From an archaeon (GTDB lineage: Archaea > Nanobdellota > Nanobdellia > Pacearchaeales > GW2011-AR1), in the NCBI GenBank assembly GCA_018693315.1, contig JABHLR010000004.1:34138-98137 (forward strand): DNA of 64,000 nt, given 5' to 3'. The position numbers and the translations under genes were made by a program. Positions 1-51,167 of this stretch are shown here, in pieces. Position 1 is the first letter of the stretch. Each line of letters opens with the position of its first letter. Under the pieces are notes generated by a model. It was given only the letters and a program-made list of their open reading frames with translations. It searched no databases and was not told the DNA's origin.

Positions 1-89
1 TAAATAAAAATCACCCTATAAATTCACACCCAACTCCAAAACATATTTCCCAAACCAACAATTATATAAAACCAGCTTCACTTTCAATA

Positions 90-842
90 CTATATTTTCC
101 CACTCTTACAAAACTCATCAACAATCTTCGCCGCAACCTTCACAGTCCGAAAATCATACCTCTCATCCTTCACAACATCAACCTCGACGACATCAATCGC
201 CCTCAAGCTCTTAACACAAAAAATTCTCCTAAGCAAATAAAACAATTCCTTAGAACTCAAACCATTAGGCTCAGCATAACTAACACCCGGCGCAACCGCA
301 GGATCCAAAACATCAATATCAACCGAAACATAAACATCTTTCCCATTCGCATTCTCAGTAACATAATCCCCAATCGCTTCCACGTCGTAAACCTCAGAGA
401 AAACCTTAATCCCCTTCTCCTTCAAAAATTTCCTCTCAACATCCCACATCTTCCTCGCCCCAATCAAAACAATATTCTCCGGCTTAAACCCAGAATCAAC
501 AACTCCCCGCAACCACTCCTCATGCGTAGGCTCCTTCGCACAATAATCACAATCAGCATGCGCATCAAACACAATCAAAAAAGAATTCTCAAGACTTTCA
601 TTAAACGCCTTCACAATCGGATACGAAATAGAATGATCTCCACCAACAAACACTGCTCTCTCATTATCCTCAAAAACCTCTCTAGCCTTCTCATAAATAA
701 TCTTCCCACTTTCTTCAACATTAGAATTATCAACAATAATTTCCTCAGCCTCGACACCAAGCTCAGCAACAATCTTATCCGCCGCGCCCTCAGGCCCACT
801 CTTCCCAAGCGCACTAACTCCCGCAACTTTCAAAATCTTCAT
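90..842 (-). CDS. arginase/agmatinase-family ureohydrolase
   Basis: ORF 90..890 (-). Mn-ureohydrolase motifs GGDHSISYP, VFDAHADCD and SVDIDVLDPAVAPG. Start trimmed to MKILKVAG. Confidence 0.8.
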   Translation of the reverse strand: MKILKVAGVSALGKSGPEGAADKIVAELGVEAEEIIVDNSNVEESGKIIYEKAREVFEDNERAVFVGGDHSISYPIVKAFNESLENSFLIVFDAHADCDYCAKEPTHEEWLRGVVDSGFKPENIVLIGARKMWDVERKFLKEKGIKVFSEVYDVEAIGDYVTENANGKDVYVSVDIDVLDPAVAPGVSYAEPNGLSSKELFYLLRRIFCVKSLRAIDVVEVDVVKDERYDFRTVKVAAKIVDEFCKSGKI

Positions 843-965
843 TAGAAAAAATCTCCCGATTTTTGACAAGCAAGGGCTCCGCCATTGCAATATCTAAAAA
901 CCTGTGCTTCAGCACATTTATACATCATTAAAATACATAAAATTCACAGCTATTAAAGCTTTAGA

Positions 966-3350
966 TTAACCAATATATCTCCACAGAGAACCATCTGAAT
1001 CTCTAGAAAAGAGACTACCTTGGTGCAACACACCATATTCACTAACCCCAGTGTCTACCCAATCACTTCCATCATAATGATAAACATGCGTTCCATTCGA
1101 AACAAAATCACCCTCAAAATGACTAACACTGGATAACTCAGAAGGAAATCCTATTGATTCCCAACTATAACCATTATCATAATAATAACGGTGAATATCA
1201 TTATCTGCCTCCATAACATAAAGTGCACTGTTGGCATACGAAATATACGACATAGAATTAATAGTCTCCCCCGTATAACCCTTAGAGTCCCATTCACTGT
1301 TACCATAATCATAAGCAAACACATCACTTCCATCAGTAATATAACGACCAGCAACACTATCAACATCCCCTCCATCATAATCTCCTAACACCCACGCACC
1401 ACCACTATAATAATAAACACGATCATCATTCGCAGCGATACCATCCCCTAAAACATCAACCTCAGATTCATGCTCAGAATAATCTGTAGTTTTCCACGTG
1501 TAGCCACCACCCTGCCAAGTATGATAATAAATATCTCCAGCACTGTCTGCAACATAGTAACCATATCCAGTCTTATCAACATCCGAAGAATAGGATGTAT
1601 CACTACAAGAAGAGCTTCCTCCCCCCGACTGACAACGATAAATACTGTCACCATTAAAAAGATAGCCATTTTCAACCTTATCAATAGATCCGGAATAACT
1701 AAAAGGAGTAAAACCACTCCCGCTATTATAATATACTTCATTACTACTTCCATACACATAATAAGTATCATTAGACACGCCATAAACAGACGACATTCCA
1801 GGATAATTTACATTTTCCCAATTAGGCCCAATACTAAGGCCAGAGTTACAATAATCATAAGTTGAAGAGGAAAGCCAACTACCACAAGTACCACCTACAG
1901 TATCAAAAGTATTATCACTACCTCCTTGACTGTCTGTACTTGATTCACAATAAACATCACTTTCAAGACTAGCTCCCTCGCAGAAATAATTGTTATTAAT
2001 TCTGTTGTAATTGCTGCTAGAAGCCAAATAAATACCAAAATCATTAAAGGATAAGCTATTATTATATATGTCAACATAATTACTCCCCTCAATCTTAATT
2101 CCATAACCATAGTTGTTTTGACCATTTCTGGAAATATTATTATACTGAATATAATCATAATGGTTAGAATTATCTCCATCACTATAAACCATATGAACTC
2201 CATAACCAGAATTATCCGAAATATTATTCCCCTCTATCTGATCAGTAGTATAACTGCCACCATCACTTCCCATAGAAGCATAATAGGAAGAAACACCCGC
2301 ATAATTATCCTTTATCTCAATCCCATAAATATAAGCCCCACGACTATAAGAAAGAAGTACTCCCTCGGTAAACCCATTTATATTTCCGGGGCCGTAAATA
2401 TAAACATTATTCACATTATTCACATAAATCCCAGAATCATCTCCGTTGGTATAAGAACCACCTTGGCTCCCAGATCCACTAATCGAATGCCCATTCAAAT
2501 TAATATTAACATCATCAGCAGTAACCGTGAGACACGTACCCGAACTAGTCGAAATACTTCTATCCAAATCATACGTTCTACCAGAAACATCCAAATCATC
2601 TCCGCCACAATCCTGAATCACATAATCATAACTACACAACCCATCAGAACACCCATTATAACAATAATTTTCTGTTTCGTTAATAATCTCATCCACCCCA
2701 CAAACACCAGCGCCAATATCACAACGAGGATTCGTAGATTGATACACCGCATAACTACCAATACATTTATCCTCATAACTCACAAGACCACAATCAATAT
2801 CAGCAGCACAAATAGAAGGAACCAAATATTCGCCATCCAGCTGGGCCCCTTCATAATTTCCCTCAAGAATAGAAGGCGCGCTAATCGACGACGAGAAAGA
2901 ACAAACAGTCTCTCTGTTTCCATCAATTGAAACTGGCGCAATCTTTATCGTACTCGGAGCAATATATGAACCACCCTCCATTCCCTTACCTGTCAAATTA
3001 AAACATTTTTTCTTCATCGCACTAGAAACAGGAATATCATCACCAGAAAAATTCCCCTTCATTTCAATCGAAGATCCACCATAATCAAACAAAACATCAA
3101 TCCTACTCAAATTAGATTTCCCACTCACTTTCTTAACCTGCACACAAGCAACCCCATCAGCATAATCAAAAAAAGTATAACCATCAGCGTTATTGATAAT
3201 CACAGTCGCATCACAATCTCCTGCACCAAACCCATTCTGAATCATTGGAATAATAAGCGTCCAAACAATCGCAACCCCAGCAACAGTTATCAAAATAGTC
3301 AAAATCGTAGCGACAATCGCAGAAACACCCTTCTTATCACCAAATCTCAT
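966..3350 (-). CDS. large secreted surface protein with archaeal class III (pilin-type) signal peptide and beta-helix-like repeats
   Basis: ORF 966..3368 (-). The N-terminus MRFGDKKG/VSAIVATILTILITVAGVAIVW resembles an archaellin/pilin N-terminal signal. The middle has NNISDNSGYGV / NNISRNGQNNYGYGI type parallel-beta-helix repeats. The C-terminal half is Y/G/D/S-rich repeats. Confidence 0.7.
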   Translation of the reverse strand: MRFGDKKGVSAIVATILTILITVAGVAIVWTLIIPMIQNGFGAGDCDATVIINNADGYTFFDYADGVACVQVKKVSGKSNLSRIDVLFDYGGSSIEMKGNFSGDDIPVSSAMKKKCFNLTGKGMEGGSYIAPSTIKIAPVSIDGNRETVCSFSSSISAPSILEGNYEGAQLDGEYLVPSICAADIDCGLVSYEDKCIGSYAVYQSTNPRCDIGAGVCGVDEIINETENYCYNGCSDGLCSYDYVIQDCGGDDLDVSGRTYDLDRSISTSSGTCLTVTADDVNINLNGHSISGSGSQGGSYTNGDDSGIYVNNVNNVYIYGPGNINGFTEGVLLSYSRGAYIYGIEIKDNYAGVSSYYASMGSDGGSYTTDQIEGNNISDNSGYGVHMVYSDGDNSNHYDYIQYNNISRNGQNNYGYGIKIEGSNYVDIYNNSLSFNDFGIYLASSSNYNRINNNYFCEGASLESDVYCESSTDSQGGSDNTFDTVGGTCGSWLSSSTYDYCNSGLSIGPNWENVNYPGMSSVYGVSNDTYYVYGSSNEVYYNSGSGFTPFSYSGSIDKVENGYLFNGDSIYRCQSGGGSSSCSDTSYSSDVDKTGYGYYVADSAGDIYYHTWQGGGYTWKTTDYSEHESEVDVLGDGIAANDDRVYYYSGGAWVLGDYDGGDVDSVAGRYITDGSDVFAYDYGNSEWDSKGYTGETINSMSYISYANSALYVMEADNDIHRYYYDNGYSWESIGFPSELSSVSHFEGDFVSNGTHVYHYDGSDWVDTGVSEYGVLHQGSLFSRDSDGSLWRYIG

Positions 3351-3381
3351 AAAAAACATTAGAAACAATACTATTTAAAAC

Positions 3382-4584
3382 TTAAGGCCCGAGGCTAAAA
3401 CTAGAAAACTTAGAGATCTTCGCTAATCTCTTAATATCAGCCAAACTCACAGCCATAATTTTCTTTCCATAATTATAATAATCTTTAGAATCCCCACTGA
3501 TTTCTTCCAAAATCAAATTAAGCGCCGTAGCCTCCGATCCCTCAGACTCAACATGCCGATTCCCAACAACCTGAACCTTCGCCGCTTCCAACTCCTCACT
3601 AGTTATCGAACCCATTTTCCCAAACTCCTCCAAACAAACATCAAGAACCTCTTGCCGCTTTTCCTCATCAGTTCCTGCATAAATAATCATATAACCATAT
3701 TCCTTACCTAAATCAACATCACTCTTAACAGCATAAACCAACCCCCTCTTCTCACGAACTTCTGTAAACAGCTTCGACGACATCCCCTGCCCCAAAATCG
3801 CAGAAAATAACTCAGCAGCATAACGCCCATTCTCTTTGGCAAAAGGGAAATGGAATCCAATCGCCAAATTAGTCTGCTCAACCCCTGGCCGACTCTCACT
3901 ATCTTTCAAAATCTTCTCAGAAATTTTAGGAACCGAAACCTTAACCACATCTTTCTTCTCACTAAACTTCTCAGCAATCTCAACAACCTCCTCAAAATCA
4001 TTACTCCCAACAACACACAAAATCGAATTACTCGGAACGTAAGCTTCACGATGCTTATTATATAGGGTATCCCTACTCATCCCTTTAACATTCTCCGCGC
4101 TACCAGCAATCGACATACCAAATGGAGCCTCATACAAATTCTCCTTAATCTTCTCAATCGTGTGCCTAATCGGATTATCCTTATACATCTTAATTTCCTC
4201 ACAAATCACATTCCCTTCTTTCTCAACTTCCTCCTCAGGAAAAATAGCATTAAAAAAAACATCCGAAATAACACTCATGGCAATATCCAAATGCTCAGAC
4301 GGCAACTTCACATGATAAGCCGTAACCTCTTCGTGAGTAAAAGCATTCAAATCACCACCAACCCTCTCGACCTCTTCAGCAATCTGCTTAACAGTTCTAT
4401 TCGCGGTTCCCTTAAAACACAAATGCTCAATAAAATGCGCCATACCCTTTTCCTCAACCGATTCATAAGCTGAACCATACTTCGCCGCCAACATCACAGT
4501 GGTCACCGGGACATCTCTCTTCTCAAACAAAACAGTCAAACCATTTTTCAAAACTTTTTTCTTAAAATTTATCATACAATTCAA
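3382..4584 (-). CDS. M16 (pitrilysin/insulinase) family zinc peptidase
   Basis: HxxEH zinc motif HFIEHLCFKGT near the N-terminus. The 400-aa two-lobe length is typical of the family. Confidence 0.8.
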   Translation of the reverse strand: MNCMINFKKKVLKNGLTVLFEKRDVPVTTVMLAAKYGSAYESVEEKGMAHFIEHLCFKGTANRTVKQIAEEVERVGGDLNAFTHEEVTAYHVKLPSEHLDIAMSVISDVFFNAIFPEEEVEKEGNVICEEIKMYKDNPIRHTIEKIKENLYEAPFGMSIAGSAENVKGMSRDTLYNKHREAYVPSNSILCVVGSNDFEEVVEIAEKFSEKKDVVKVSVPKISEKILKDSESRPGVEQTNLAIGFHFPFAKENGRYAAELFSAILGQGMSSKLFTEVREKRGLVYAVKSDVDLGKEYGYMIIYAGTDEEKRQEVLDVCLEEFGKMGSITSEELEAAKVQVVGNRHVESEGSEATALNLILEEISGDSKDYYNYGKKIMAVSLADIKRLAKISKFSSFSLGP

Positions 4585-4642
4585 AAACGCAACCTACTTA
4601 AATAACTTTCTCCTCGTAATTACAACTAAAAAGAGGTATAAC

Positions 4643-4984
4643 ATGGAATTAGACTTAATCGGGAAGTGGGCATTTATCATTGGATTAGTTATCGCTGTCC
4701 TTGCCGCATTTGTTACTCAAGTTGAAACATCTACTATTCTACTGATCCTATTCATCTTAGGTTTGATAGTTGGTGCTTTAAACATTAACAAAAAGAACAC
4801 TACTGAATTTCTGGTTTCTGTAATCGCTCTACTCGCAGTAGGAAGTCTCGGTGCATTAGCAGTCGGACAACTTATAGAAGTAGTAGGATACCTAGAAGCA
4901 ATCTTGGGCAACTTTATAGTATTTGTCGCAGCTGCTGCTCTAGTCGTATCTATTAAAGCAATTATAGTTACATCAAAGAAATAA
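4643..4984 (+). CDS. small integral membrane protein
   Basis: 113 aa with about three hydrophobic helices. aagaggt (SD-like) lies 7 nt before ATG 4643. The track ORF from 4499 overlaps the neighbouring gene and is too long. G/C are roughly balanced, unlike neighbouring + strand genes. Confidence 0.55.
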   Translation: MELDLIGKWAFIIGLVIAVLAAFVTQVETSTILLILFILGLIVGALNINKKNTTEFLVSVIALLAVGSLGALAVGQLIEVVGYLEAILGNFIVFVAAAALVVSIKAIIVTSKK

Positions 4985-4994
4985 ACAAAAAAAA

Positions 4995-5744
4995 TTATTT
5001 TTTATTTTTTAATATTATTATTCTTTCTCCGAACATCGGGAACTCTTTCTCGATCAAAAACTCTTCCATCAAAAAATCCATTATCCACTTTCTCTGAACT
5101 GCAAATTTTTTCCTACCACCCAAACTCTCCGTCGGCAAACTCAAAACAATCCATTCACACTCCTTAGAAATATCCAATAAAAACTTCTTAGAAAAATCCT
5201 TCTCTAAATTCTCCAAAGCATCAACAACCTGAAACAAAAAAACAACTCTATCTCTACCCTGCTTCTTCAAAACATCTTTAATTTTTTCAACATCAAATAA
5301 ATCCAAGCAAAAAGCCTCAGCATTAAAATCATTCTCCTCAAAATAATTATTCATATGATCAACCTCTTGCCCAGCCGCCTCGACCGCCACATATTTAACC
5401 GGACCAATCGCATCCTTCAAATATTCATAACTAAACCCATTAACTCCCGCGCCCAAATCAACCACAGAAGAAATATTCCTCATATACTCTGGGGCCATTC
5501 CCTCCTGCGAAAAAATCTCTCCATAAAATTTCTCATAATCCCTCTTTTTACTAGACATATGATGACCCAGTAAATCATCTTTCCCCTTCAAAACCCTATT
5601 CGTCAAAAACACACCAAAGTATTTTCTCAACAAAGCCCTAACTTCCTTAACATCATCACCCGCAATTCCAACCGCTCGCTCAACAACCGAATCCGGCAAC
5701 TTAGAAAACTCACGCTTCTTCTTAACTTCGTCAACTAAACTCAT
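4995..5744 (-). CDS. FmrO/ArmA/Rmt-family 16S rRNA (guanine-N7) methyltransferase-like protein
   Basis: SAM motif VVDLGAGVNGFSYEY. SLPTESLGGRKK..KWIMDF and VKKKREFSKLPDSVVERAV line up (from memory) with ArmA/RmtB FPIKSLSGKEKG / FPTRSLGGRGKG and KKYENLDSDIVEKVV. Confidence 0.6.
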   Translation of the reverse strand: MSLVDEVKKKREFSKLPDSVVERAVGIAGDDVKEVRALLRKYFGVFLTNRVLKGKDDLLGHHMSSKKRDYEKFYGEIFSQEGMAPEYMRNISSVVDLGAGVNGFSYEYLKDAIGPVKYVAVEAAGQEVDHMNNYFEENDFNAEAFCLDLFDVEKIKDVLKKQGRDRVVFLFQVVDALENLEKDFSKKFLLDISKECEWIVLSLPTESLGGRKKFAVQRKWIMDFLMEEFLIEKEFPMFGERIIILKNKK

Positions 5745-6436
5745 TTTACAACCACATCCTTCATCAAATGCCTAAACTCCCCCTCACTCTCAACATCAAA
5801 ATCGATATCAATCCTCGAACTATATCCCGGCATATTCAAAACCGTCGTCTCAGCCTCGCCCCCCTCAAAATCCAACCTAAACTTAAACTTCTCCGACAAC
5901 TTCCTTAACTCGCCAAGAGCCTTCTCGTCAATAACCCGGCCAAGCCACTCCTTCCCAATCCCGTCACAAGCAATCTTAATCATAATAACCTCAAAACCGG
6001 GCTCACCAGAGTCATGCCCGCCGAGGGCCTCGCCAATCAACTCGTCCCAAAGTTTCTCCGGCTCATAATCCCAAAGCGGCGCAACAAACTCCAACCCAAA
6101 ATCATCACAAATTTTCTTAACCCGTTTCCCCTGATAACTTGAGGCAATTCCACCGACGACAATTCCATCAACATCATCCTTAACTTTTTCAATCAACCTA
6201 CTCAAATCATCCAACTCCTCATTCTCAACACCCTCGCTCTCAACAGAAACCATCTCAATCCCCAACCTCTCAACCTGCGCATCCAACAAACCCTTATCCT
6301 GCTTATGAAACATAAAACTATCAATATTCCTCGGATTTATGTTCAACAAATATTTGACATCCCGCCCCTCCTCCAAAACCTTATGCAAAGCTAAACACGA
6401 ATCCTTCCCTCCCGAAAACAATACTCCCAGCTTCAT
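5741..6436 (-). CDS. PP-loop ATP pyrophosphatase, MJ0570/Dph6 (diphthine-ammonia ligase) family
   Basis: N-terminal MKLGVLFSGGKDSCLAL (SGGKDS PP-loop). 231 aa. 4-nt overlap with the methyltransferase gene downstream. Confidence 0.7.
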   Translation of the reverse strand: MKLGVLFSGGKDSCLALHKVLEEGRDVKYLLNINPRNIDSFMFHKQDKGLLDAQVERLGIEMVSVESEGVENEELDDLSRLIEKVKDDVDGIVVGGIASSYQGKRVKKICDDFGLEFVAPLWDYEPEKLWDELIGEALGGHDSGEPGFEVIMIKIACDGIGKEWLGRVIDEKALGELRKLSEKFKFRLDFEGGEAETTVLNMPGYSSRIDIDFDVESEGEFRHLMKDVVVK

Positions 6437-6470
6437 AAATACTTAACAAAAAATCAATTTAACAACCTTA

Positions 6471-6866
6471 CTACTTCTTATTTTTCCACTTATTTCTCGG
6501 TTTCCGCAAAAACAAATAAGCAAAATAAGCAACTAGCAAAACAAATATCACTCCGAAAACAAGAGCAAGATAAAAATTAAGCGTGTACTTCTCATCAGCC
6601 TCACCGCCAGAATAATCCGGAGCAGTATAACCGTAATCATAAGGAACATCGGTCACATCATCATCACTATCATTATTAGTGTCGTTAATAACAATTGGAT
6701 CAACATCAACATCGGTATCGTTAATATCAGTATCATTATCACTTTCGTTATTGGAATCCCTATCCGAATTAATATCCCCCCAATCTCCTGCAGCACAAAC
6801 TAATCCAATCGCAAAAACAAAAACAAACAGCCACACAAATCCTTTTCCTATAAATTTCTTTAGCAT
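6471..6866 (-). CDS. membrane-anchored acidic D/N-rich protein
   Basis: Signal/anchor MLKKFIGKGFVWLFVFVFAIGLVCAAG, a D/N-rich middle, and a C-terminal TM plus KPRNKWKNKK. Start trimmed from 6989 to avoid overlapping the divergent GTPase gene. Confidence 0.5.
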   Translation of the reverse strand: MLKKFIGKGFVWLFVFVFAIGLVCAAGDWGDINSDRDSNNESDNDTDINDTDVDVDPIVINDTNNDSDDDVTDVPYDYGYTAPDYSGGEADEKYTLNFYLALVFGVIFVLLVAYFAYLFLRKPRNKWKNKK

Positions 6867-6935
6867 TTTCTCGCAAGAAAATGATTCATGAAAGTTTTCC
6901 ATAACTTTCTTAAACCAAGTTACTTTAATAATCTT

Positions 6936-7850
6936 ATGGCGTCGACAAACCAATCCCCATTCTACCAAAGAGCTGAAGAAGAATTCCACAAAGCAACAAC
7001 AGACGAAGAAAGAATCGCATGCCTAGAGATAATGATGAAAGAGGTCCCAAAACACAAGTCCTCAGAAAACATGCGAAAAAATCTAACCAATCGTTATAAA
7101 AAATTAAAATCTGGACTCGCAAAACAAAAAAAAGCTGGAAAATCATCACAACAGGGAATAAAAAAAGCTGACATGCAATGCGTCCTAGCTGGATTCCCAA
7201 ACGTCGGCAAATCAACAATTTTCAAAACCCTAACAAAACTAAATCCAAAAATTTCCCCCCACCCATTCACAACATACAAACCACAACTCGGAACATTCAA
7301 ACACGAAGATGCACCAATTCAAATCATCGACATCCCATCATTTCCAGGCCACGAAAAATCCTTAGTCAACTCAACCGACACATTGCTACTAGTCGTGGAT
7401 AATATCGAACAAATCAAAGAAGCCGAAAAACACACATACAGAACAAAAGCAAAAATAATTCTAATATTCAACAAAGAAGATATTCTTTCAGAAAACGAAA
7501 AACGAAAAATTGAAGCAACCCTAAAATCAAAATACAAAAAATTAGATTACATATTTTTTTCAACAAAACCAACAAAAGACAAACTGAACAAACTTACAAA
7601 AAAAATATTTGACACATTTCCAATAATTAGAATTTACACCAAAGAACCAAAAAAAGCTGCAAGCAAAGATCCAATGATAATGAAGGAAAAGTCAACCTTC
7701 AAGAACGCAGCGGAAAAAATCCTAAAAGGTGTATCTAAAAAAATCAAACGAGCAAGAATTTGGGGTCCATCCTCAAAATTCGGCGGGCAAGTGATAGGAC
7801 TAGAGCACGTACTAAAAGACAAAGACATCATTGAATTCCAAACCAAATGA
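6936..7850 (+). CDS. DRG/Obg-family GTPase with C-terminal TGS domain
   Basis: P-loop GFPNVGKST, IIDIPS (G3-like) and a TGS-like end KDKDIIEFQTK. ATG 6936 lies 22 nt after a TTCTTAAA box. Confidence 0.8.
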   Translation: MASTNQSPFYQRAEEEFHKATTDEERIACLEIMMKEVPKHKSSENMRKNLTNRYKKLKSGLAKQKKAGKSSQQGIKKADMQCVLAGFPNVGKSTIFKTLTKLNPKISPHPFTTYKPQLGTFKHEDAPIQIIDIPSFPGHEKSLVNSTDTLLLVVDNIEQIKEAEKHTYRTKAKIILIFNKEDILSENEKRKIEATLKSKYKKLDYIFFSTKPTKDKLNKLTKKIFDTFPIIRIYTKEPKKAASKDPMIMKEKSTFKNAAEKILKGVSKKIKRARIWGPSSKFGGQVIGLEHVLKDKDIIEFQTK

Positions 7851-8137: not shown

Positions 8138-8168
8138 TTCTTATAAGCTCAATAACAGCTATCTTAAT

Positions 8169-43554: not shown

Positions 43555-43606
43555 TTCTACTCGTAACGTAAGCAAAAATCTTTGATCTTTGATAATCTTA
43601 TGAATT

Positions 43607-44821
43607 TCATTCGTAACGTAAAGCATCAACAGTATTAATCTTACTCGCTCTCCACGCCGGAATCATCCCAGAAATCGCACCAGTTAATGTCGCAAACAAA
43701 ATCAAGCCAGCAAATAAAACCCAAGAATAATGCGGACTCAAAAATCCATAACCAAGATTATCCAAAATGCCAGCTCCTATATCTGTCGCAAGCCACCCAA
43801 GCGTAACCCCAATCACACCAGCAACAAATCCTAAAAACCCAGACTCAAATAAAAATATCTTAAAGATTTCTGAATTCCTCGCACCAATAGATTTCAAAAC
43901 TCCAATCTCCTTAAACCTCTCAAGCACCGAAGTAATCATCGTATTCGCAGTATTCACCGCCGACACAACAACCGAGATAAAAGCAATCAAAAGAATAAAC
44001 CCAATAATAATATCCAAAACAACAGTAAAATTCTCTAGCAAGTCGCCATAAGACTGGACAGAAAAATCCTCCTTTCCCTCGTCCAAGTCCCTATGCTGCC
44101 GAAGTTTCTTTGTAACTCTATCTACAACGCCATCAATATTATCCTTATCGGCTCTGGCCAAAATCATTCCGTAGGAAAGATTGTCGCCAGGATAAAGCTC
44201 CGACATAAAATCATTAGTAACATAAATATTAGAATCATCTTGAGGATTCCCGACCTTCTCATAAAAGCCAACAACTCGAAGGTCCTGTCCCTGAACTTCA
44301 ATCTTACTGTTAAGAGCATAGGCCTTAGGAAAAATCTTATTTTTCACCATATAATTATAACCCAAAGTAACCTTGCCAGAATCAGAAGATCGAAGCTCAC
44401 GTCCCTCCACAACTTCAACATCAGAAAGCTCCATTATCATCGGAAACTCAGGATCATAACCCACGACAAAAGCATACTTCTTTTCGTCATCTTGAATAAC
44501 TTCCCCAGCACCCATATACAACCCAGTCGCTTCAAAAATACCAGGTGTATTTTCAATCACCCGCACATCATCATCCAATAATTTAAACGTCGTGTCAAGT
44601 CCAGGGACCCCAGCCCCACCCTTCGGCTGAATCAATAGCTTATCCGCAGAAGATGAAGATGTAAAATCATCAATATAATCATAAAGGCCCCAACCATAAC
44701 TAACAAAAATAAAAATCGTAGCAATCCCAACAAAAATCGACAACACAGTAAGAATACTCCGAGCCTTACTCTGCTTAATATTGTTCAACGAATACTTTAT
44801 ACTTTCTTTACTGATAACCAT
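43607..44821 (-). CDS. ABC transporter permease, MacB/FtsX family
   Basis: 404 aa. N-terminal TM, large extracytoplasmic domain, and a C-terminal FtsX 3-TM module (LERFKEIGVLKSIGA). Confidence 0.85.
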   Translation of the reverse strand: MVISKESIKYSLNNIKQSKARSILTVLSIFVGIATIFIFVSYGWGLYDYIDDFTSSSSADKLLIQPKGGAGVPGLDTTFKLLDDDVRVIENTPGIFEATGLYMGAGEVIQDDEKKYAFVVGYDPEFPMIMELSDVEVVEGRELRSSDSGKVTLGYNYMVKNKIFPKAYALNSKIEVQGQDLRVVGFYEKVGNPQDDSNIYVTNDFMSELYPGDNLSYGMILARADKDNIDGVVDRVTKKLRQHRDLDEGKEDFSVQSYGDLLENFTVVLDIIIGFILLIAFISVVVSAVNTANTMITSVLERFKEIGVLKSIGARNSEIFKIFLFESGFLGFVAGVIGVTLGWLATDIGAGILDNLGYGFLSPHYSWVLFAGLILFATLTGAISGMIPAWRASKINTVDALRYE

Positions 44822-44822
44822 A

Positions 44823-46040
44823 TTATCCTCTCAGCGCCTCCACAGGATTTTGTTTAGCAGCATTCATGGCCGGAACAATACCAGCAACAGCACCTACAAC
44901 AAAGCTTCCCAATAGCGCACCGCCAATCAAGAAGAAGTCAACAGACGGAGAAAGCTCTGCTCCAATAAAGCTATTAATAGCAAGGGTTCCAGTAACACTG
45001 GCCAAAGTTCCCAAAATAATTCCAACTAAACCACCAACAAATCCAAGCATCCCAGACTCAAAAAAGAACTGTAAAAAAACCTGAAAGTTTGTTCCGCCAA
45101 TAGCCTTCATAATCCCAATCTCCTTTCGCCTCTCCAAAACAGAGGTAGTCATTGTGTTAACAATTCCCAGCGCGCCAACCAAAATCGAAATCGAAGCGAT
45201 AATCACAATAAAAGCTTTTACTCTACCAAGAACACTGTTCACCGTTTCCAAAATCGCGTCAGGAGTAGAAACCTCAAAATCCTCCTCGCCCTCTTTAACA
45301 TCTCTACGCTTCCTCAATAGCCTCTCAATTTCCTCCTTTGCTCGGTCCATCAAATCAGGATGCTTTACCTTAACCCCAATAACATCTACCTCATCGCCAA
45401 CTTCAAACAAATCATCCAAATCATCCTGATACATAAGAACAATATTATCAAACATAAAACTCCCTTTTTTCTTAAGGATGCCAACAACCTTAAATCGCTC
45501 ATCTTGAACCAAGATATTATCACCAGTCATGATATCTTTATCAAACCCATTCTTACTTCCATCAGCCAGGCCGTCACCAATGACAATCCTTCCCAAAGCA
45601 TCATTCAAAAGCATTGTCCCCCTATCGGCCTCCAAGTCCATCGTCTCATACATCTCTCTTTCCATCTCATCATCGACACTAACAGCCATACTAAAAACAA
45701 CAACATCATTATATTCTATTTTAGCCGTCTCAAGATTTCGAGGCGTAGCAAATTCAATAGTGCCGAGTCTGCCAATTGCATCACTATCATCCCTGGTTAA
45801 CTTGTTGACAGCCCCACTTCCAGGAGGACCAAAAGCATTAAGCCCACCAGCCTGAACAGTTAAAGCTTGAGTAGAACTGACCCCAAACTGAGCGCCAACC
45901 GCAGCTTGCAAGCCATTCCCCAAGCCAATCAAAGCAACAACAGCAGTAACACCAATAAAAATCCCAAGCAAAGTCAGCCAAGATCTAATTCCCCTATGCT
46001 TCAAATTCTTCAAGGCCAGAATCAAATAATCAAGCTTCAT
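44823..46040 (-). CDS. ABC transporter permease, MacB/FtsX family
   Basis: 405-aa paralogue of the previous gene (LERRKEIGIMKAIGG). Confidence 0.85.
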   Translation of the reverse strand: MKLDYLILALKNLKHRGIRSWLTLLGIFIGVTAVVALIGLGNGLQAAVGAQFGVSSTQALTVQAGGLNAFGPPGSGAVNKLTRDDSDAIGRLGTIEFATPRNLETAKIEYNDVVVFSMAVSVDDEMEREMYETMDLEADRGTMLLNDALGRIVIGDGLADGSKNGFDKDIMTGDNILVQDERFKVVGILKKKGSFMFDNIVLMYQDDLDDLFEVGDEVDVIGVKVKHPDLMDRAKEEIERLLRKRRDVKEGEEDFEVSTPDAILETVNSVLGRVKAFIVIIASISILVGALGIVNTMTTSVLERRKEIGIMKAIGGTNFQVFLQFFFESGMLGFVGGLVGIILGTLASVTGTLAINSFIGAELSPSVDFFLIGGALLGSFVVGAVAGIVPAMNAAKQNPVEALRG

Positions 46041-46813
46041 CAGCGCCGTCCATTAGATTTAGCTTCTTTCTTCTTCTTCTTCGTAACATCAATAAACTTT
46101 TTCCCGACCCTCTTCGTAACCTTATCAAGCCGGCCATCCAACAACCAATAAACAACATCCGCATACTCCTTCGCCAAATCTGGATCATGAGTAACCATAA
46201 TCACAGTCTTCCCTTGTTTATTCAGCTTCTCCAAAAACTCCATAACAATCGCACCAGTCTTCGTATCCAAATTTCCCGTCGGCTCGTCCGCAAGAATAAC
46301 CTCAGGGTCATTCGCCAAACTCCTCGCAATCGCAACTCTCTGCATCTGCCCACCAGAAATCTCCCCAGGATAATGGTCCATCCTATCATGCAACTCAACC
46401 AACCTCAACAGCTCCTCAGCCTTATCGCTCCTCTCCTCAAGACTCGTCCCCTGAAACATCATCGGCAACATAACATTCTCCTTAACAGTAAGATTCGGAA
46501 TCAAATTAAACGACTGAAAAATAAACCCAATCTTCTTTCCCCTAATCTGCGCCAAATCAGATTCACTCAACTCAGAAATATCACCATCATCCAAATAAAC
46601 CTGACCATGCGTCGGCACATCCAAACTCCCAACCAAATTCATAGCAGTAGATTTCCCAGAACCACTCGGCCCCATAATCGCAATAAACTCCCCCTCATAA
46701 ACCTTAAAATCCAAATGCCTCAACGCCTTAACAACAGAATCCCCCATCGGATAATGCTTCGACACATTCCTCAATCTAATCACCTCACTCTTAGCAGCAC
46801 TCACCTTTTTCAT
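46040..46813 (-). CDS. ABC transporter ATP-binding protein (MacB/LolD type)
   Basis: Walker [10 protein letters not shown], signature [13 protein letters not shown], Walker [12 protein letters not shown]. Unusual K-rich C-terminal tail. Confidence 0.9.
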
Positions 46814-46955
46814 ACACAAAATACACAAATCTCCTATATAAATTTAGCCATAAACTTTACATCTCACCAGAGATACCTACTGGGTAAACCAAAACAAAAT
46901 AAGTTTGTGAAACTTGCACAGTAAGTTTTATAAACCAAAAATTCGCTACTCAAGT

Positions 46956-47153
46956 ATGATAATCCCAATAAGATGTTTCAGCTGCGGAAAACCAATCGCG
47001 CACCTATATCCAAAGTACAAAAAACTAGTCGAAGACGGCAAGTCTCAAAAAGAAGCCCTCGACGAACTAGGCATCAAGCGATACTGCTGCCGAGCACAAA
47101 TTCTAGGACAAACAGACACACTAGAGCTAGTCAACAAATTCAAAAAATTCTAA
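46956..47153 (+). CDS. rpoN: RNA polymerase subunit N (Rpo10)
   Basis: MIIPIRCFSCGKPI..KRYCCRAQIL. TTTATAAA box 22 nt before ATG 46956. Confidence 0.9.
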   Translation: MIIPIRCFSCGKPIAHLYPKYKKLVEDGKSQKEALDELGIKRYCCRAQILGQTDTLELVNKFKKF

Positions 47154-47185
47154 ACATTTATATATTCTCCAAACCAAGTTACTCA

Positions 47186-47326
47186 ATGGAAAACCCAGAA
47201 GATACTTTCCACCAAAACTATCAAACACCAAGACTAATATTCCCACAAGAGTCAATTATAACAAGAGAGGAAGTTCAAAAAGAATGGAACGAAGCAACAC
47301 GATATATTCTAAAAAAAATAAAATAG
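47186..47326 (+). CDS. small hypothetical protein (46 aa)
   Basis: MENPEDTFHQNYQTPRLIFPQESIITREEVQKEWNEATRYILKKIK. Supported only by a TTTATATA box ending 22 nt before the ATG. Confidence 0.4.
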   Translation: MENPEDTFHQNYQTPRLIFPQESIITREEVQKEWNEATRYILKKIK

Positions 47327-47432
47327 ACAGCTCCGTGCGTTCCCATCATAGACAGTACAAACACGAACATAACAAGCTTAACTTCTGAGTTCGGAACGGG
47401 ATCAGGTGTTACCAAGTTATTATGGCCGTCTA
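47324..47432 (-). rRNA. 5S rRNA (orphan, about 109 nt)
   Basis: The reverse complement reads tagacggccataataacttggtaacacctgatcccgttccgaactcagaagttaagc..gggaacgcacggagctgtcta. It has the conserved CCCGTTCCGAACTCAGAAGTTAAGC core and a terminal helix TAGACGGC/GCTGTCTA. Confidence 0.85.
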
Positions 47433-47505
47433 ACATTACAGCCCATTTTCCATTTATAAATCTTCCTAACAATAATTTTATAAACAATAATCACCAGAAT
47501 AAAAC

Positions 47506-47997
47506 ATGAAGAGGTTCTTTGCAATATCAGCTTTAGTTCTTGCAGCCCTAGTGTCATCATCTAAAGCAGACATAATTCCACCAACATCAGGGGTATGGAC
47601 CCAGCCGAGAGCATACATTGGGACAACGGTCGCACCAGAGCCATTAGAAACTGGAGAAATCTATAAATTCAAAACAAAACTAATCAACGATGGGGCAGCC
47701 TCAGCACAAGCACACTTGATTGGCAGAGTATCAGGGACGACAGAACCCTTCTACAACTCAACATTCTCAATTCCAGCAAACGACGACACAATAAGAGGAG
47801 CAACATTTGGGCAGTTCTCAAACCCAGGAATATACACAGTAGATTTCGAAGTCAATGGGCAGCCATACCTAAGCAAAGATTTCAACGTAACCCCCGAACC
47901 ATCAGCTCTAGCGATAACAGCTCTTGGGGGACTCACACTTCTCAAACGAAAAAGAAGACTCAATGACGCTAACGACCAACAAAGAAAAGCCACATAA
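47506..47997 (+). CDS. secreted protein with PEP-CTERM-like sorting signal
   Basis: Signal MKRFFAISALVLAALVSSSKA. C-terminus VTPEPSALAITALGGLTLLKRKRRL (PEP motif, TM helix, basic cluster). TTTATAAA box 22 nt before the ATG. Confidence 0.65.
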   Translation: MKRFFAISALVLAALVSSSKADIIPPTSGVWTQPRAYIGTTVAPEPLETGEIYKFKTKLINDGAASAQAHLIGRVSGTTEPFYNSTFSIPANDDTIRGATFGQFSNPGIYTVDFEVNGQPYLSKDFNVTPEPSALAITALGGLTLLKRKRRLNDANDQQRKAT

Positions 47998-48036
47998 CCC
48001 CAACTCTTTTATAGCCAAAATTTCTAATTAATTTAT

Positions 48037-48112
48037 GCTCTCGTAACTCAGCCTGGATTAGAGTGCTTCCCTCCTAAGGAAGAAGTCGCAAGTTCAAATC
48101 TTGCCGAGAGCG
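48037..48112 (+). tRNA. tRNA-Arg (anticodon CCT)
   Basis: Hand fold: GCTCTCG/CGAGAGC acceptor, ACTC..GAGT D stem, CTTCC-CTCCTAA-GGAAG, GCAAG-TTCAAAT-CTTGC, discriminator G. 76 nt. Confidence 0.85.
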
Positions 48113-48140
48113 TCCAGATTTGAACTAAGACTGTCGCAAG

Positions 48141-48200
48141 CGAACAACTCGCTTCGAGCAAAACAAAGTTCTTAATTTTTTGCGAGATGCAATTTGTGAG
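48141..48200 (+). repeat. A-B hairpin element copy 3
   Basis: cgaacaactcgcttcgagcaaaacaaagttcttaattttttgcgagatgcaatttgtgag. Inner stem GCAAAA/TTTTGC, outer stem CTCGC/GTGAG. Confidence 0.7.
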
Positions 48201-48202
48201 TA

Positions 48203-48220
48203 AAATCTTGCCGAGAGCGT
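48203..48220 (+). repeat. 18-bp direct repeat of the tRNA-Arg 3' end
   Basis: aaatcttgccgagagcgt is identical to 48096..48113. gtcgcaag (T-stem 5' strand) is also repeated at 48133..48140. Confidence 0.85.
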
Positions 48221-48260
48221 TTCATTAATTTTAAAAACCCTTCAATACTCCTCATTTTAA

Positions 48261-48331
48261 GCGTGGATAGTATAATGGTAGTATAATTGGTTTCCAACCA
48301 ATTGGCCTGGGTTCAATCCCCAGTCCGCGCA
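48261..48331 (+). tRNA. tRNA-Gly (anticodon TCC)
   Basis: Hand fold: GCGTGGA/TCCGCGC acceptor (one G-U pair), ATTGG-TTTCCAA-CCAAT, CTGGG-TTCAATC-CCCAG, discriminator A. 71 nt. Confidence 0.8.
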
Positions 48332-48334
48332 TAC

Positions 48335-48417
48335 GAGGGAATGCCGGAGCGGTCAAACGGGGCAGACTCAAGATCTGTTAGCTTATGCTTACGGGGGTTC
48401 GAATCCTCCTTCCCTCA
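48335..48417 (+). tRNA. tRNA-Leu (anticodon CAA)
   Basis: Hand fold: GAGGGAA/TTCCCTC acceptor, GCAGA-CTCAAGA-TCTGT, 14-nt variable arm, GGGGG-TTCGAAT-CCTCC, discriminator A. 83 nt. Starts 3 nt after tRNA-Gly. Confidence 0.8.
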
Positions 48418-48494
48418 TGTATGGTTTCAAAGAAACCATTCAATAAGTAGAATTCTAAGGCTGGAGAGAAGCCAAGAAATTGAATAGTCGGGGA

Positions 48495-48556
48495 CGAACA
48501 ATTCGCTTCGAGTAAAACTAATATCGAAGATATTTTTACGAGATGCAAATTGCGAG
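48495..48556 (+). repeat. A-B hairpin element copy 4
   Basis: cgaacaattcgcttcgagtaaaactaatatcgaagatatttttacgagatgcaaattgcgag. Inner stem GTAAAA/TTTTAC, outer stem TTCGC/GCGAG. Followed by ggaatctccttccc, a near-repeat of the tRNA-Leu 3' end. Confidence 0.7.
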
Positions 48557-48615
48557 GGAATCTCCTTCCCCCCAAGCCCCACAAACTTTAAAACACACAA
48601 TTCTCTAAATATAAC

Positions 48616-49629
48616 ATGAACTTCGAACCCTGGTACAACAAAAACTACAAAAAACTCCTAATCATCCCAGCAATAGTCCTAGCGCTCTCCCTAATATATA
48701 TAGGAATCTTCTACATCCAAAACGGCGACATAATCAATAAAGACGTATCCCTAACAGGCGGAACAACAATAACCCTCCAAACAGACATCGCAGCACAAGA
48801 CCTGGAGGCCGAAATATCAAAAACCATAACAGATTTCGAAATCACGACCATATCAAACAATGCAGGAACACAAATTCAACTAGCGATAATCGTCGGAGAG
48901 CACAATACAGAAACCCTGGAAGTGGCGCTAGAAGAATTCCTTGATTACGAACTGACATCAGCGAACGGGGTTTCAAAAGAAACAACAAGCGCATCATTAT
49001 CCGCAGACTTTTACAAACAATTAATCGTCGCAATTCTCATCGCATTCTTCTGGATGGCCGCAGTAGTTTTCCTAATTTTCTCCAAGGGCAAAAAAACAAA
49101 ATTCTGGGTAATAATTTTGAACGTCTTATTAGGATTCTTCATGGGAAACTTTTTTCTAAAAAGTAATCCAGTAATATCAGGAATAATTTTCATCGCATTC
49201 GCAGCAGTTCTAATCAGAATTTACATCAAAAATTCCGTCCCAGCTTTCGCGGTTATGCTCGCAGCTTTCGCGAACATCATAATGGCACTAGCAGTCGTCG
49301 ACCTAATCGGAATCAAATTGTCAACAGCCGGAATCGTCGCCTTCCTGATGCTTATCGGTTATTCCGTAGACACTGATATCCTTCTAACAACAAGAATGCT
49401 GAAAAAACACGAAGCCACAAACACGGCACTTTTCGGAGCTTTCAAAACCGGGACAACAATGACAATCACATCCATCATCGCAATTACGGCAGCACTAATC
49501 GTCGTCTTCCCTTTCGCATCGGTTCTAAATCAAATCTTCACAATTCTGCTAATCGGTTTAGCTTTTGATCTTTTCAATACATGGATCACAAACGCCTCAA
49601 TAATTAAATGGTATGTCGAAACAAAATGA
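48616..49629 (+). CDS. secF: protein-export membrane protein SecF
   Basis: 337 aa. N-terminal TM, periplasmic-type domain, and a C-terminal 5-TM block with LMLIGYSVDTDILLTTRM. TTTAAAAC box 22 nt before the ATG. Confidence 0.8.
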   Translation: MNFEPWYNKNYKKLLIIPAIVLALSLIYIGIFYIQNGDIINKDVSLTGGTTITLQTDIAAQDLEAEISKTITDFEITTISNNAGTQIQLAIIVGEHNTETLEVALEEFLDYELTSANGVSKETTSASLSADFYKQLIVAILIAFFWMAAVVFLIFSKGKKTKFWVIILNVLLGFFMGNFFLKSNPVISGIIFIAFAAVLIRIYIKNSVPAFAVMLAAFANIIMALAVVDLIGIKLSTAGIVAFLMLIGYSVDTDILLTTRMLKKHEATNTALFGAFKTGTTMTITSIIAITAALIVVFPFASVLNQIFTILLIGLAFDLFNTWITNASIIKWYVETK

Positions 49630-51167
49630 AAATAACTTTCAAAATCTGGATATTATTAATTGCAGTAGTTCTATCGCTGATTTCAATATTTTCAATCCCA
49701 CCAATGATGTTCGAGAATGGGGTATCTGTGACTGCAGTTGAGCAGAATTCAACAATATTCCAGGACGGACTAAGAGAAGGAATGATAATACAAGAAATAA
49801 ATGAGCGACAAATTAATACCCTAGAAGATTATTCATCGGCGCTATCTGTTTTTGAAAACTTAGAAATAAATGGAACACAAAAACTAATAATAAAAACAAA
49901 GGAACTAGAAATCATAAATCTTTTTACAAGAAATATAATTAATGACATATCAGTCGAAGAAATCTCATCCACTAGAATAAAAACAGGATTAGATCTTCGT
50001 GGTGGAGCAAGGGCATTTATCAAGGCAGACATTCCTCTAAATGACGCACAGCTAAATGACCTAATCGCAATTTCGGAACAGAGATTGAATGTATATGGGT
50101 TGTCAGATGTAAAATTCTTCAAGGTAGAAACATCTTCAGGAGAAAATCTCATGGGAATAGAAATCGCGGGATCGTCACCAGACGAGCTAGAAGAGTTAGT
50201 CGCAAAGCAGGGAAAGTTCGAGGCAAAAATCGGAAATGAAACGGTTTTTGTTGGCGGCAACGAGGATGTAACCCACGTCGGCAGGACGGGGCAGGACGCA
50301 CTGATTACAGAATGCAACCCAAGCGGAGAAGAAGAATATTGTAATTTTAGATTTACGGTTTTCTTGAGCGAAGCAGCAGCCCAGAGACACGCAGACATAA
50401 CAGACAAATTAACAATCAATGGATCTTACTTAAGCAAAAAATTAGATTTCTTCATAGACGGAGAGGCAACCTCCTCATTAAACATAGGGACCTCGCTTAA
50501 GGGAACAGTAACAACACAGATCGCAATTTCTGGCTCAGGTTCAGGGCCAACAAGAAATGAAGCAATCGAAGCGGCACAGACAGAAATGAAAAAACTCCAA
50601 ACAATTCTAATAACAGGATCACTCCCGTTCAAACTGGAAGTAGTAAAGATTGATAAAATATCCCCAAACTTAGGAGAACAATTCACAAGACAAATTCTAA
50701 TCGCAGGACTCTTTGCAATACTCGCTGTTTCAATTGTAGTATTCGTAAGGTACAGAAGATTAAAAATTTCATTGGCATTAGTATCAGTTTCGCTATCCGA
50801 AGTATTAATTATTCTAGGGGTCGCAGCTTTAATAGGATGGAATTTAGATCTCCCATCGATAGCCGGAGTGATAGCAGCGATAGGAACAGGTATAGATTCA
50901 CAACTAATTATTTTAGATGAAGCACGGGACAAATTCGAATCAATCAAGCAACGAATCAAGAAGGCCCTGTTTATTATCGTGACAGCTTTCGCAACAACAT
51001 TCGTAGCAATGATTCCACTAACAGGATTCTTAGGATTCATGGGAATCGGCGCAGCATCGGCAGGACTTCTAAAAGGTTTCGCTGTAACAACCTTAATAGG
51101 TATCACAACAGGTGTTCTAATCTCACGGCCAGCATTCGCAGACATAGCAAGACAACTCGAGGAATAA
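49626..51167 (+). CDS. secD: protein-export membrane protein SecD
   Basis: GLDLRGGA motif, a large extracytoplasmic domain, and a C-terminal TM block with IAAIGTGIDSQLIILDE. ATGA overlap with secF (start set to ATG 49626). Confidence 0.8.
   Translation: MKITFKIWILLIAVVLSLISIFSIPPMMFENGVSVTAVEQNSTIFQDGLREGMIIQEINERQINTLEDYSSALSVFENLEINGTQKLIIKTKELEIINLFTRNIINDISVEEISSTRIKTGLDLRGGARAFIKADIPLNDAQLNDLIAISEQRLNVYGLSDVKFFKVETSSGENLMGIEIAGSSPDELEELVAKQGKFEAKIGNETVFVGGNEDVTHVGRTGQDALITECNPSGEEEYCNFRFTVFLSEAAAQRHADITDKLTINGSYLSKKLDFFIDGEATSSLNIGTSLKGTVTTQIAISGSGSGPTRNEAIEAAQTEMKKLQTILITGSLPFKLEVVKIDKISPNLGEQFTRQILIAGLFAILAVSIVVFVRYRRLKISLALVSVSLSEVLIILGVAALIGWNLDLPSIAGVIAAIGTGIDSQLIILDEARDKFESIKQRIKKALFIIVTAFATTFVAMIPLTGFLGFMGIGAASAGLLKGFAVTTLIGITTGVLISRPAFADIARQLEE

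Follow-up and report, generated by a model that had tools for sequence, protein, structure and literature searches.

Why is one strand of an archaeal chromosome so poor in G and so rich in C whichever way its genes point, and why does this bias fade at the junction of secF and secD? The question is raised by a stretch of 64,000 nucleotides from a Pacearchaeote (contig JABHLR010000004.1, positions 34,138 to 98,137 of the forward strand), hereafter the window, where both features had been noticed by a model that saw the letters alone (the sequence-only reading). We read the window together with 10 kb on either side, about 83 kb in all, from a scaffold of at least 181 kb. Gene identities were taken from Pfam and public gene calls, and transfer RNAs (tRNAs) from ARAGORN. 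Four-fold degenerate sites served as the neutral measure; their values are given for the plus strand unless stated otherwise, with the genes split by orientation. The loci of DNA polymerase D (PolD) in relatives, denoted by L numbers, were taken from a species-genome collection via an alignment-based search with the large subunit DP2, as a single-protein DP2 query matched nothing. The analysis leads us to consider it likely that the skew is a deamination-type asymmetry between leading and lagging strands within a single replichore, and that the fade marks an exchanged surface-glycan island and not a feature of replication.

The five hand counts on which the sequence-only reading was built proved exact (0 G and 19 C at 1-60, 4 and 23 at 121-180, 3 and 19 at 7201-7260, 18 and 11 at 50221-50280, 17 and 8 at 56101-56160). 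The whole window contains A 22399, C 16818, G 7965 and T 16818, the exact equality of C and T being taken as a coincidence. Over 1-47 kb, the plus-strand GC skew in 2-kb windows lies between -0.24 and -0.58 and the AT skew is mostly +0.1 to +0.39; past 49 kb the GC skew runs from +0.10 to -0.33. For 1-49.6 kb as a whole, the plus-strand GC skew is -0.41, which amounts to 164 excess C per kb, accompanied by 101 excess A per kb. In the core of the domain, most genes of both orientations show a four-fold GC skew of -0.4 to -1.0, and the extreme skew extends at least 10 kb to the left of the window (extension L094), where nearly all genes, again of both orientations, have +0.5 to +1.0 in the minus-strand sense. 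Bacterial GC skew is typically about 2.5% according to SkewDB (PMC8941118), and a 2026 survey gives 23-25 excess G per kb in bacteria and 7-8 in archaea (PMC12999951). The statement that such a large skew is uncommon among archaea thus agrees with the survey: at synonymous sites the skew is about 7 times the bacterial norm and about 20 times the archaeal one.

The asymmetry belongs to the strand and is independent of coding, just as had been claimed. At the four-fold sites left of 49.6 kb, minus-strand genes have A 2019, C 1215, G 238 and T 486 (GC skew -0.67, AT skew +0.61), and plus-strand genes have A 895, C 420, G 120 and T 209 (-0.56 and +0.62); the binomial test of G against C gives p=7e-158 and p=5e-40, respectively. 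When open reading frames (ORFs) were chosen by cross-genome homology alone, the strand-wide component of the skew was 0.72 for GC and 0.67 for AT, with a coding component of 0.03. The GC skew at third codon positions (GC3 skew) of plus-strand genes left of 49 kb, which the sequence-only reading had named as the decisive test, is -0.42 to -0.78 in most of them, and the claim stands; in minus-strand genes it is +0.4 to +0.96 in the coding sense. At four-fold sites, G and T together make up about 81% of the minus strand, and the skew of intergenic DNA has the same sign as that of the genes. Every four-fold codon family flips between the strands, with T/G endings making up 67-90% in minus-strand genes and A/C endings 70-91% in plus-strand genes; in the two-fold families, C/(C+T) is 0.10 in minus-strand and 0.68 in plus-strand genes, and G/(A+G) is 0.73 and 0.14, respectively. 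Since one tRNA pool cannot select opposite codons, the opposite preferences on the two strands indicate a mutational origin. The size, the strand-wide nature and the extent of the skew, as well as its reproducibility across assemblies, are demonstrated.

The bias reverses codon usage between the strands and also shifts the amino-acid composition, even that of the replicative polymerase. The proposed shaping of the proteome was confirmed in that T, Q and I are about twice as frequent in plus-strand proteins, and V, G, D and C about half as frequent; A and N did not shift as claimed. Among 73 PolD DP2 orthologues, the excess of G/V/W/C/F over T/P/Q/H/N/K tracks the four-fold keto skew (Spearman 0.75, p=3e-14, a generous p-value given that the orthologues are phylogenetically related), the window being at one end and L074, with its PolD on the other type of strand, at the opposite one. 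A good illustration is the plus-strand block that begins with a GTPase gene (see the table), where the four-fold GC skew is -0.55 to -0.73 and the AT skew +0.66 to +0.84, with minus-strand genes interleaved at 10297-10701 and 11930-12736. The latter encodes a UDP-glucose/GDP-mannose dehydrogenase whose match is limited to part of the N-terminal NAD domain, and which may be decaying; the same may be true of the second TctA gene (12816-13646, plus strand), which covers the C-terminal two-thirds of the Pfam model and adjoins a full-length TctA.

A further consequence concerns annotation. Because TAG and TGA are lacking on the G-poor strand, very long antisense ORFs arise, and such stop-poor frames mislead gene callers. 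An ORF of 697 aa, for example, lies opposite PolD DP2 (21076-23169, plus strand), and to the left of the window two gene callers disagree on identical DNA, reporting either a 232-aa ERCC4 nuclease or several small antisense ORFs (L094 10853-11835, L096 883-1858). The latter case had been considered as a presence/absence polymorphism of ERCC4, which we rejected because the DNA itself is identical. Composition-based binning and the detection of horizontal transfer would also behave oddly with such DNA, and the skew provides a sensitive clock for recently imported sequences.

What could produce such a bias? In bacteria, GC and TA skews of the Lobry type distinguish the replication strands, and their strongest forms, e.g., in Borrelia burgdorferi, split codon usage by replication strand. 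The window resembles these systems in the excess of G over C and of T over A on one strand whatever the gene orientation, in the presence of the skew at both synonymous and intergenic sites, in the enrichment of genes on the G-rich strand, and in strand-dependent codon and amino-acid usage. It differs from them in size (164-173 excess bases per kb versus about 25 in bacteria and 7-8 in archaea; PMC8941118, PMC12999951), in its archaeal host with a eukaryote-like replisome plus the bacterial-type polymerase DnaE, and in having no origin/terminus switch within about 83 kb. With the heavy and light strands of vertebrate mitochondrial DNA it shares a comparable four-fold skew, the C>T and A>G direction on the exposed strand and one polarity throughout the region, but it is a cellular chromosome, with a scaffold of at least 181 kb, and shows no skew gradient from the putative origin. 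In kind, then, this is classical leading/lagging asymmetry, and in size it is like vertebrate mitochondrial DNA.

We therefore attribute the skew, with fair confidence, to a replication-strand mutational asymmetry of the deamination type, because of its amino-to-keto direction, the orientation of the genes, its persistence as a trait of the lineage, and the decay of a tRNA-Ser fragment. In this fragment, a 5′ half that has decayed beside the live gene, three G>A and one T>C differences were found, which is the direction that the bias predicts and that had been pointed out from the sequence. As for orientation, the minus strand holds 73-78% of the coding bases, with PolD, DnaE, cdc6 and the ribosomal proteins among them, in line with the earlier remark that the G+T-rich strand carries the essential genes. 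A very strong strand-specific mutation pressure would drive neutral sites close to equilibrium, with C lost to T and A to G on the minus strand. By the bacterial rule the minus strand is the leading one, so that forks would travel leftwards through all of this DNA from an origin to the right, beyond 73 kb, and the minus strand would be the exposed lagging-strand template. In that case a single replichore would hold the window together with at least 10 kb on either side, and no switch of polarity was seen in the 83 kb.

The comparison with relatives, which had been suggested as a check, showed the same kind of skew, usually weaker, with the window as the extreme. PolD DP2 has hundreds of homologues that are 65-90% identical (the best 90%), the named ones being assigned to Candidatus Pacearchaeota, Nanoarchaeota or simply 'archaeon', and the related PolD loci in species genomes belong to metagenome-assembled genomes of Pacearchaeota or Woesearchaeota. 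The strand-wide four-fold GC skew reaches 0.45-0.68 in nine or more further species-level loci from across the order (0.58-0.68 in L005, L013, L019, L027 and L045, and -0.64 in L074) and 0.1-0.3 in many others; the sister with the 90% match has the same PolD composition as the window. In the literature on Pacearchaeota or Woesearchaeota and GC skew, no report of such a skew was found. A recent generalisation describes archaea as being without strand-specific mutational skews and does not mention DPANN (PMC12999951); this Pacearchaeote and several of its relatives are a clear counter-example.

The sequence-only reading had also suggested a link between the skew and the unusual set of replicases. 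The bacterial-type DnaE gene lies directly downstream of the genes for PolD DP1 and DP2 and a 127-aa ORF, and with a four-fold skew of -0.81 it is fully host-like. DnaE is 67-76% identical in L001, L050, L098 and L099 and adjoins PolD in the first three of these, L099 being a DnaE-bearing contig fragment that ends short of any PolD neighbour. The gene was previously reported for two Pacearchaeota, also beside PolD (PMC8204110). A metagenome scan for DnaE relatives yielded two archaeal-type loci among 80, the rest being about 40% identical and probably bacterial. As a layer on replication asymmetry, not an alternative to it, one may propose that DnaE copies the exposed strand without stalling at template uracil or hypoxanthine and thereby sets the extreme size of the skew. 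Template bases of this kind inhibit archaeal PolB and PolD (PMC2794169, PMC3627576), and DnaE acting on the exposed strand would presumably fix the lesions as C>T and A>G. The location of DnaE in the PolD operon, its full amelioration and the strong skew of four of the five DnaE loci (the window, L001, L098 and L099, at strand-wide four-fold values around 0.5-0.75) fit this proposal. Against it, L050 has DnaE but a GC skew of about 0.04, and values of 0.58-0.66 are attained by L013, L027 and L045, where no DnaE was seen up to 10 kb from PolD. As the DnaE loci belong to a single clade, the association is phylogenetically confounded and counts effectively as one or two observations. A connection between skew and replicases is thus suggestive only, and we regard DnaE as a rather unlikely cause of the size of the skew.

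We then turn to the fade. In plus-strand genes it is a sharp step, C at third codon positions falling from 27-38% to 8-15% over about 150 bp at the secF/secD overlap, and the four-fold skew differs between the left and the right of the step with Fisher p=4e-15 for plus-strand and p=6e-21 for minus-strand genes. The change had been placed at 49.0-49.8 kb; this is right for the plus-strand genes, which step at 49.5-49.65 kb, but the domain of reduced G/C asymmetry is wider and its AT skew does not fade. A likelihood fit with two change points at four-fold G/C sites puts the domain at about 42.5-68.3 kb, with a C fraction of 0.60 inside versus 0.92 outside (log-likelihood ratio 66.8). From 49.6 to 64 kb the four-fold AT skew is +0.47 in minus-strand and +0.56 in plus-strand genes, and the GC content of the domain is 0.36-0.37 versus 0.39-0.40 in the core. 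Just beyond the window, where public gene calls give STT3/AglB, a Glycos_transf_4 enzyme and SpoIIM, the skew is still weak, +0.2 to +0.4 in the minus-strand sense. From about 68 kb to 73 kb the extreme GC skew is back with the same polarity as in the core: L18, S5, L30, L15, SecY and a YidC-like gene have +0.78 to +1.0, and the oppositely oriented IF-2B has +0.57 (all in the minus-strand sense). As only the G/C asymmetry fades while the AT skew persists, polarity is unchanged across the fade. The suspected misassembly was not borne out, since across the junction the window agrees at 99.97-100% identity with nine contigs that come from other assemblies and samples; a 97% strain variant also spans it, and the exact SecD protein is present on 22 public contigs.

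The fade coincides with a cluster of genes for N-glycosylation and surface glycans, whose GC content is 0.33-0.37. Surface-glycan islands, such as the O-antigen and capsule loci of bacteria and the aglB-linked clusters of archaea, are replaced via homologous recombination in conserved flanks. Like them, the island described here has a lower GC content and a deviant skew, its gene content differs in the closest lineage, its flanks are mosaic, and recombination tracts occur within the population; it is unlike them in that the contrast lies mainly in strand skew and not in GC content, the host bias being so extreme. In the sister L097 (SecF 89% and SecD 90% identical), secF-secD is followed by CTP_transf_like and other genes, and not by the YdjM/Wzx/glycosyltransferase cluster. 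The four-fold GC skew is -0.33 here versus -0.84 in L097 for secF, and +0.05 versus -0.52 for secD. Four-fold identity to the sister of about 90% is 0.65 for secF and 0.50 for secD, where the chance level is 0.44; expressed as excess identity, it is 0.50-0.53 for PolD (versus L178), 0.40 for secF and 0.12, near saturation, for secD (both versus L097). SecF was compared through the L097 contig, as a fused SecF+SecD query yielded SecD matches alone. Synonymous similarity thus jumps while protein identity stays equal (89-90%), which indicates that evolutionary history changes at the secF/secD boundary.

Direct traces of recombination are present as well. The co-occurring strain L089 is about 13% divergent over a 400-bp tract that covers the end of secD and the YdjM-like gene and holds 53 of its 80 differences, the flanks being nearly identical; we read it as a recombination tract seen directly. 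The skew is graded on the flanks, with secF at -0.33 on one side and SpoIIM at +0.41 and IF-2B at +0.57 on the other. Pfam scans (ORFs of at least 100 aa, 42.7-60.7 kb) and public calls up to 68 kb revealed no integrase or transposase, and no att sites were noted at the island borders, where no repeat search was made at the tRNA cluster (48.0-48.4 kb). Neither an integrase nor an att site is thus involved here, and exchange by homologous recombination needs neither. The boundaries of the island, its differing content in the sister lineage and the signals of recombination are demonstrated by these data. Most probably, the island (secD together with the N-glycosylation genes, about 49.6-68 kb; its flanks are mosaic from about 42.5 kb onwards) was swapped by homologous recombination, its donors being relatives with less G/C skew, so that its weak skew would reflect DNA that has spent less time under the bias of this lineage and is not yet worn to the host equilibrium. 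The short patches of balanced composition, which had been ascribed to recent arrivals or inversions, fit import or recombination better; inversion is ruled out, because in these patches the four-fold GC skew is weak but the sign of the AT skew is that of the host. The fade as such is a flexible island of an ordinary kind, which stands out because the background is so extraordinary.

Several points weigh against the combined reading of replication asymmetry and island exchange. The AT asymmetry of the island (+0.47 to +0.56) is as strong as that of the core; transition-only amelioration of symmetric AT-rich DNA had to be rejected as a full account, as it cannot give the T excess of the island, whose donors may instead be relatives with an AT-dominated skew in the same orientation (e.g., L050, L075, L035). 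SecD is 90% identical to its sister, no lower than the core proteins, so that import from a fairly close lineage, or simply a strong constraint on SecD, has to be supposed. The contigs L097 and L178 were taken as one sister lineage by assumption. When secD changes between the window and L089 were polarised with L097 as the outgroup, no excess of G>A or T>C was found; the count comprises 29 changes, most differences lie inside the recombination tract, and the A/C-rich outgroup biases the result. Finally, a cluster resembling oriC lies at 27.1-27.5 kb with no switch of polarity, at the very place where Pyrococcus and Forterrea switch, and because no switch was seen, the link with replication is drawn by analogy with bacteria.

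The first two of these points, the unchanged AT skew and the ordinary protein distance of SecD, would also suit a local difference in mutation, repair or selection over 42.5-68 kb (through expression, chromatin or replication context) in place of import. The same may be said of the variation of skew by gene within one ABC-transporter operon, where the four-fold GC skew is -0.87 for the ATPase, -0.51 for the first FtsX gene and -0.14 for the second; this series, for its part, suggests gene-scale mosaicism. A local difference is hard to reconcile with the strong skew of the sister secD at the same position (-0.52), followed there by different genes, with the jump in synonymous divergence at secF/secD, and with the recombination tract. 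Moreover, the four-fold C of the island on the minus strand is twice the core level, and faster C>T change should erase it in old DNA. Taken together, these data make a local cause quite unlikely, and exchange of the island remains our preferred reading.

The locus of cdc6 deserves special attention, since it is where an archaeal origin would be sought. The four-fold sites of cdc6 itself have A68 C70 G1 T4 on the plus strand. Upstream of it there is a cluster of motifs similar to origin recognition boxes (ORBs); the ORB-like motif is TTCYANNRGAAA, and at least two of the three copies in the cluster continue into a run rich in G or C. The window contains six matches versus 1.35 expected, three of the six being in this cluster, and in relatives cdc6 is likewise preceded by comparable inverted motif pairs. 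The copy that best matches an ORB, GTTCCATAGGAAATGAAGGGG, is located at 30895-30922, 3.7 kb from the cluster, inside the gene of a helix-turn-helix (HTH) protein (30672-31331) that also holds CAGACA-type repeats of 47-63 nt. Judging by its motifs, the cdc6-adjacent cluster looks like an archaeal oriC. In Pyrococcus abyssi the skew changes sign at the oriC-cdc6-PolD locus (Myllykallio 2000, cited in PMC5905446), and in Forterrea, a DPANN archaeon, the skew-defined origin lies beside cdc6 (PMC5905446). The window shares with both the order cdc6, DP1, DP2, and here too there are inverted ORB-like motifs and an AT-rich stretch upstream of cdc6; unlike in them, the skew does not change sign at the cdc6 locus, either in the window or in any of the ten strongly skewed relatives that have enough sites on both sides. 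A survey of the PolD loci of 80 relatives for a sign switch revealed none, and 27 of the 31 testable loci keep the sign. The sequence-only reading had put the active origin to the right of about 49 kb rather than at cdc6: the lack of a polarity switch at cdc6 supports its second half, but the fade does not place an origin near 49 kb, and by the usual rule the origin would lie beyond 73 kb.

The same cluster invites another explanation, namely unidirectional or strand-displacement replication starting from it, as in mitochondria, with one strand exposed chromosome-wide. The size of the skew and its amino-to-keto direction do resemble vertebrate mitochondrial DNA; the cluster is oriC-like, has an AT-rich centre and is flanked by identical polarity on both sides here and in all ten strongly skewed relatives; and the polarity to its left matches a leftward fork from the cluster. 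In four more distant relatives (L068, L074, L079 and L080), however, cdc6-PolD lies on the C-rich strand, with a strand-wide four-fold GC skew of -0.27 to -0.64. Such a reversal at the same locus is awkward for a fixed origin, and an origin elsewhere fits it better than a fixed unidirectional origin at cdc6. In these relatives, forks moving in the inferred direction would meet the genes of the replicative polymerase head-on. Among the core genes, no trend in skew is visible with increasing distance from the cluster, and no cellular chromosome is known to replicate unidirectionally or by strand displacement in this way, which also weighs against this mode; it appears very unlikely. The broader possibility that chromosomes are copied asymmetrically throughout the clade, either by PolD together with a DnaE blind to uracil and hypoxanthine or from the cdc6 ORB cluster as above, seems unlikely. 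If true, it would mean that a cellular chromosome reaches mitochondrion-like bias and that the classical archaeal origin locus no longer marks a polarity switch. In any case, the ORB/cdc6/PolD locus without a switch and the co-located DnaE make the mode of DPANN replication testable from existing metagenomes (marker frequency, whole-genome skew).

The leading/lagging asymmetry with an exchanged island is to be preferred still more clearly over the remaining alternatives. The step at 49.6 kb, where the GC skew of plus-strand genes changes from about -0.4 to roughly 0, and the briefly positive raw skew at 50-52 kb could point to a replichore edge, with an active origin or terminus at or just right of about 49 kb. 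An origin should invert the skew and not abolish it, the AT skew keeps its sign and size to 64 kb, at 68-73 kb the GC skew is again extreme and has the same sign, and the step falls on a gene boundary and on an island whose content differs in L097; a replication transition near 49 kb was rejected on these grounds as highly improbable. Gene orientation, transcription or translational selection has next to no chance of explaining the skew. Archaeal skews have been argued to follow mostly gene strand bias (PMC12999951), and 73-78% of coding bases do lie on one strand, with a coding-sense G excess at first codon positions, but the opposite synonymous preferences of the two strands and the coding component of 0.03 versus 0.72 strand-wide refute it for the window. 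That the DNA right of 49.6 kb comes from another organism by assembly chimerism, as the drop in GC content from 0.39 to 0.36 and the abrupt change of skew might suggest, is practically excluded by the above agreement across the junction between different assemblers and several ENA, JGI and Logan samples, by the overlap of the secF stop and the secD start as in L097, and by the host-type AT skew and host-type core genes that follow on the same contigs.

Features of the window, in plus-strand coordinates
Feature	Position	Strand	Basis or remark
Core extreme-skew domain	1..42500		Plus strand A+C rich, minus strand G+T rich; GC skew -0.44, 173 excess C per kb
Arginase-family protein	90-842	-	Pfam/public gene calls
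NosD-like surface protein	966-3368	-	Pfam/public gene calls
M16 peptidase	3382-4584	-	Pfam/public gene calls
Diphthamide synthase	5741-6436	-	Pfam/public gene calls
Plus-strand block: GTPase, GT2, 478-aa membrane protein, TctA, partial TctA	6888..13646	+	Codon usage mirrors minus-strand genes
Dockerin-like surface protein	13678-16287	-	Pfam/public gene calls
Bacterial-type DNA polymerase III alpha (DnaE)	17140..20325	-	Pfam PHP, DNA_pol3_alpha, finger, HHH_6; intact
PolD large (DP2) and small (DP1) subunits	20785..25768	-	Pfam
orc1/cdc6	25850..27076	-	Pfam Cdc6_C, Cdc6_lid, AAA; most skewed gene of the window
Three ORB-like motifs around AT-rich 27330-27400	27140..27475		Upstream of cdc6; motifs at 27149-27464
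Patchwork: tRNA-Ser, HTH proteins, tyrosine recombinase, recombinase fragment	about 27.5-37.6 kb	mixed	Pfam/public gene calls
tRNA-Ser(CGA) (28391-28473), decayed 5′-half copy and exact 40-nt 3′ copy	28330..28612	+	ARAGORN, repeats, alignment
Ribosomal-protein operon	37636..42579	-	S11, S4, S13, L21e in public gene calls
Reduced G/C-asymmetry domain, A/T asymmetry kept	42501..64000, on to about 68.3 kb		Heterogeneous at 42.5-49.6 kb
ABC/FtsX transporter	43607-46828	-	Pfam/public gene calls
5S ribosomal RNA (rRNA), lone, away from any 16S/23S	47322-47433	-	Adjoins tRNA cluster
tRNAs Arg, Gly, Leu	48036-48417	+	ARAGORN
secF	48616..49629	+	Pfam SecD_SecF_C
secF/secD overlap, sharp GC3-skew step	49608..49629	+	Putative recombination breakpoint
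secD (P0121), 513 aa as publicly called	49626..51167	+	Pfam
Divergence tract	51027..51426		Strain L089
N-glycosylation/surface glycan island	51169..64000		YdjM-like, Wzx-type flippase, GT2, GT4, GT1, methyltransferases, C-terminus of STT3/AglB; Pfam

Among the other features of the window, the ribosomal-protein operon has almost no C left at minus-strand four-fold sites (GC skew -0.5 to -1.0). An ORF at 46973-47326, which overlaps the edge of the 5S rRNA, is unlikely to be a gene; in public calls, a 65-aa RpoN is located at about 46956-47153. The live tRNA-Ser(CGA) found by ARAGORN was not scored by Rfam at its gathering threshold. About 64 nt past the 40-nt 3′ copy of this tRNA there is a second copy of its last 10 nt, and the whole repeat array may be the scar of an integration or a partial copy with an intron. 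In the patchwork, the tyrosine recombinase (35089-35913, plus strand; 274 aa) has a phage-integrase fold and an N-terminal SAM-like domain, and it could be a chromosomal XerA rather than the integrase of an element. A recombinase-domain fragment (36701-37231, plus strand) adjoins it, and as both genes are strongly skewed, they appear to be long resident.

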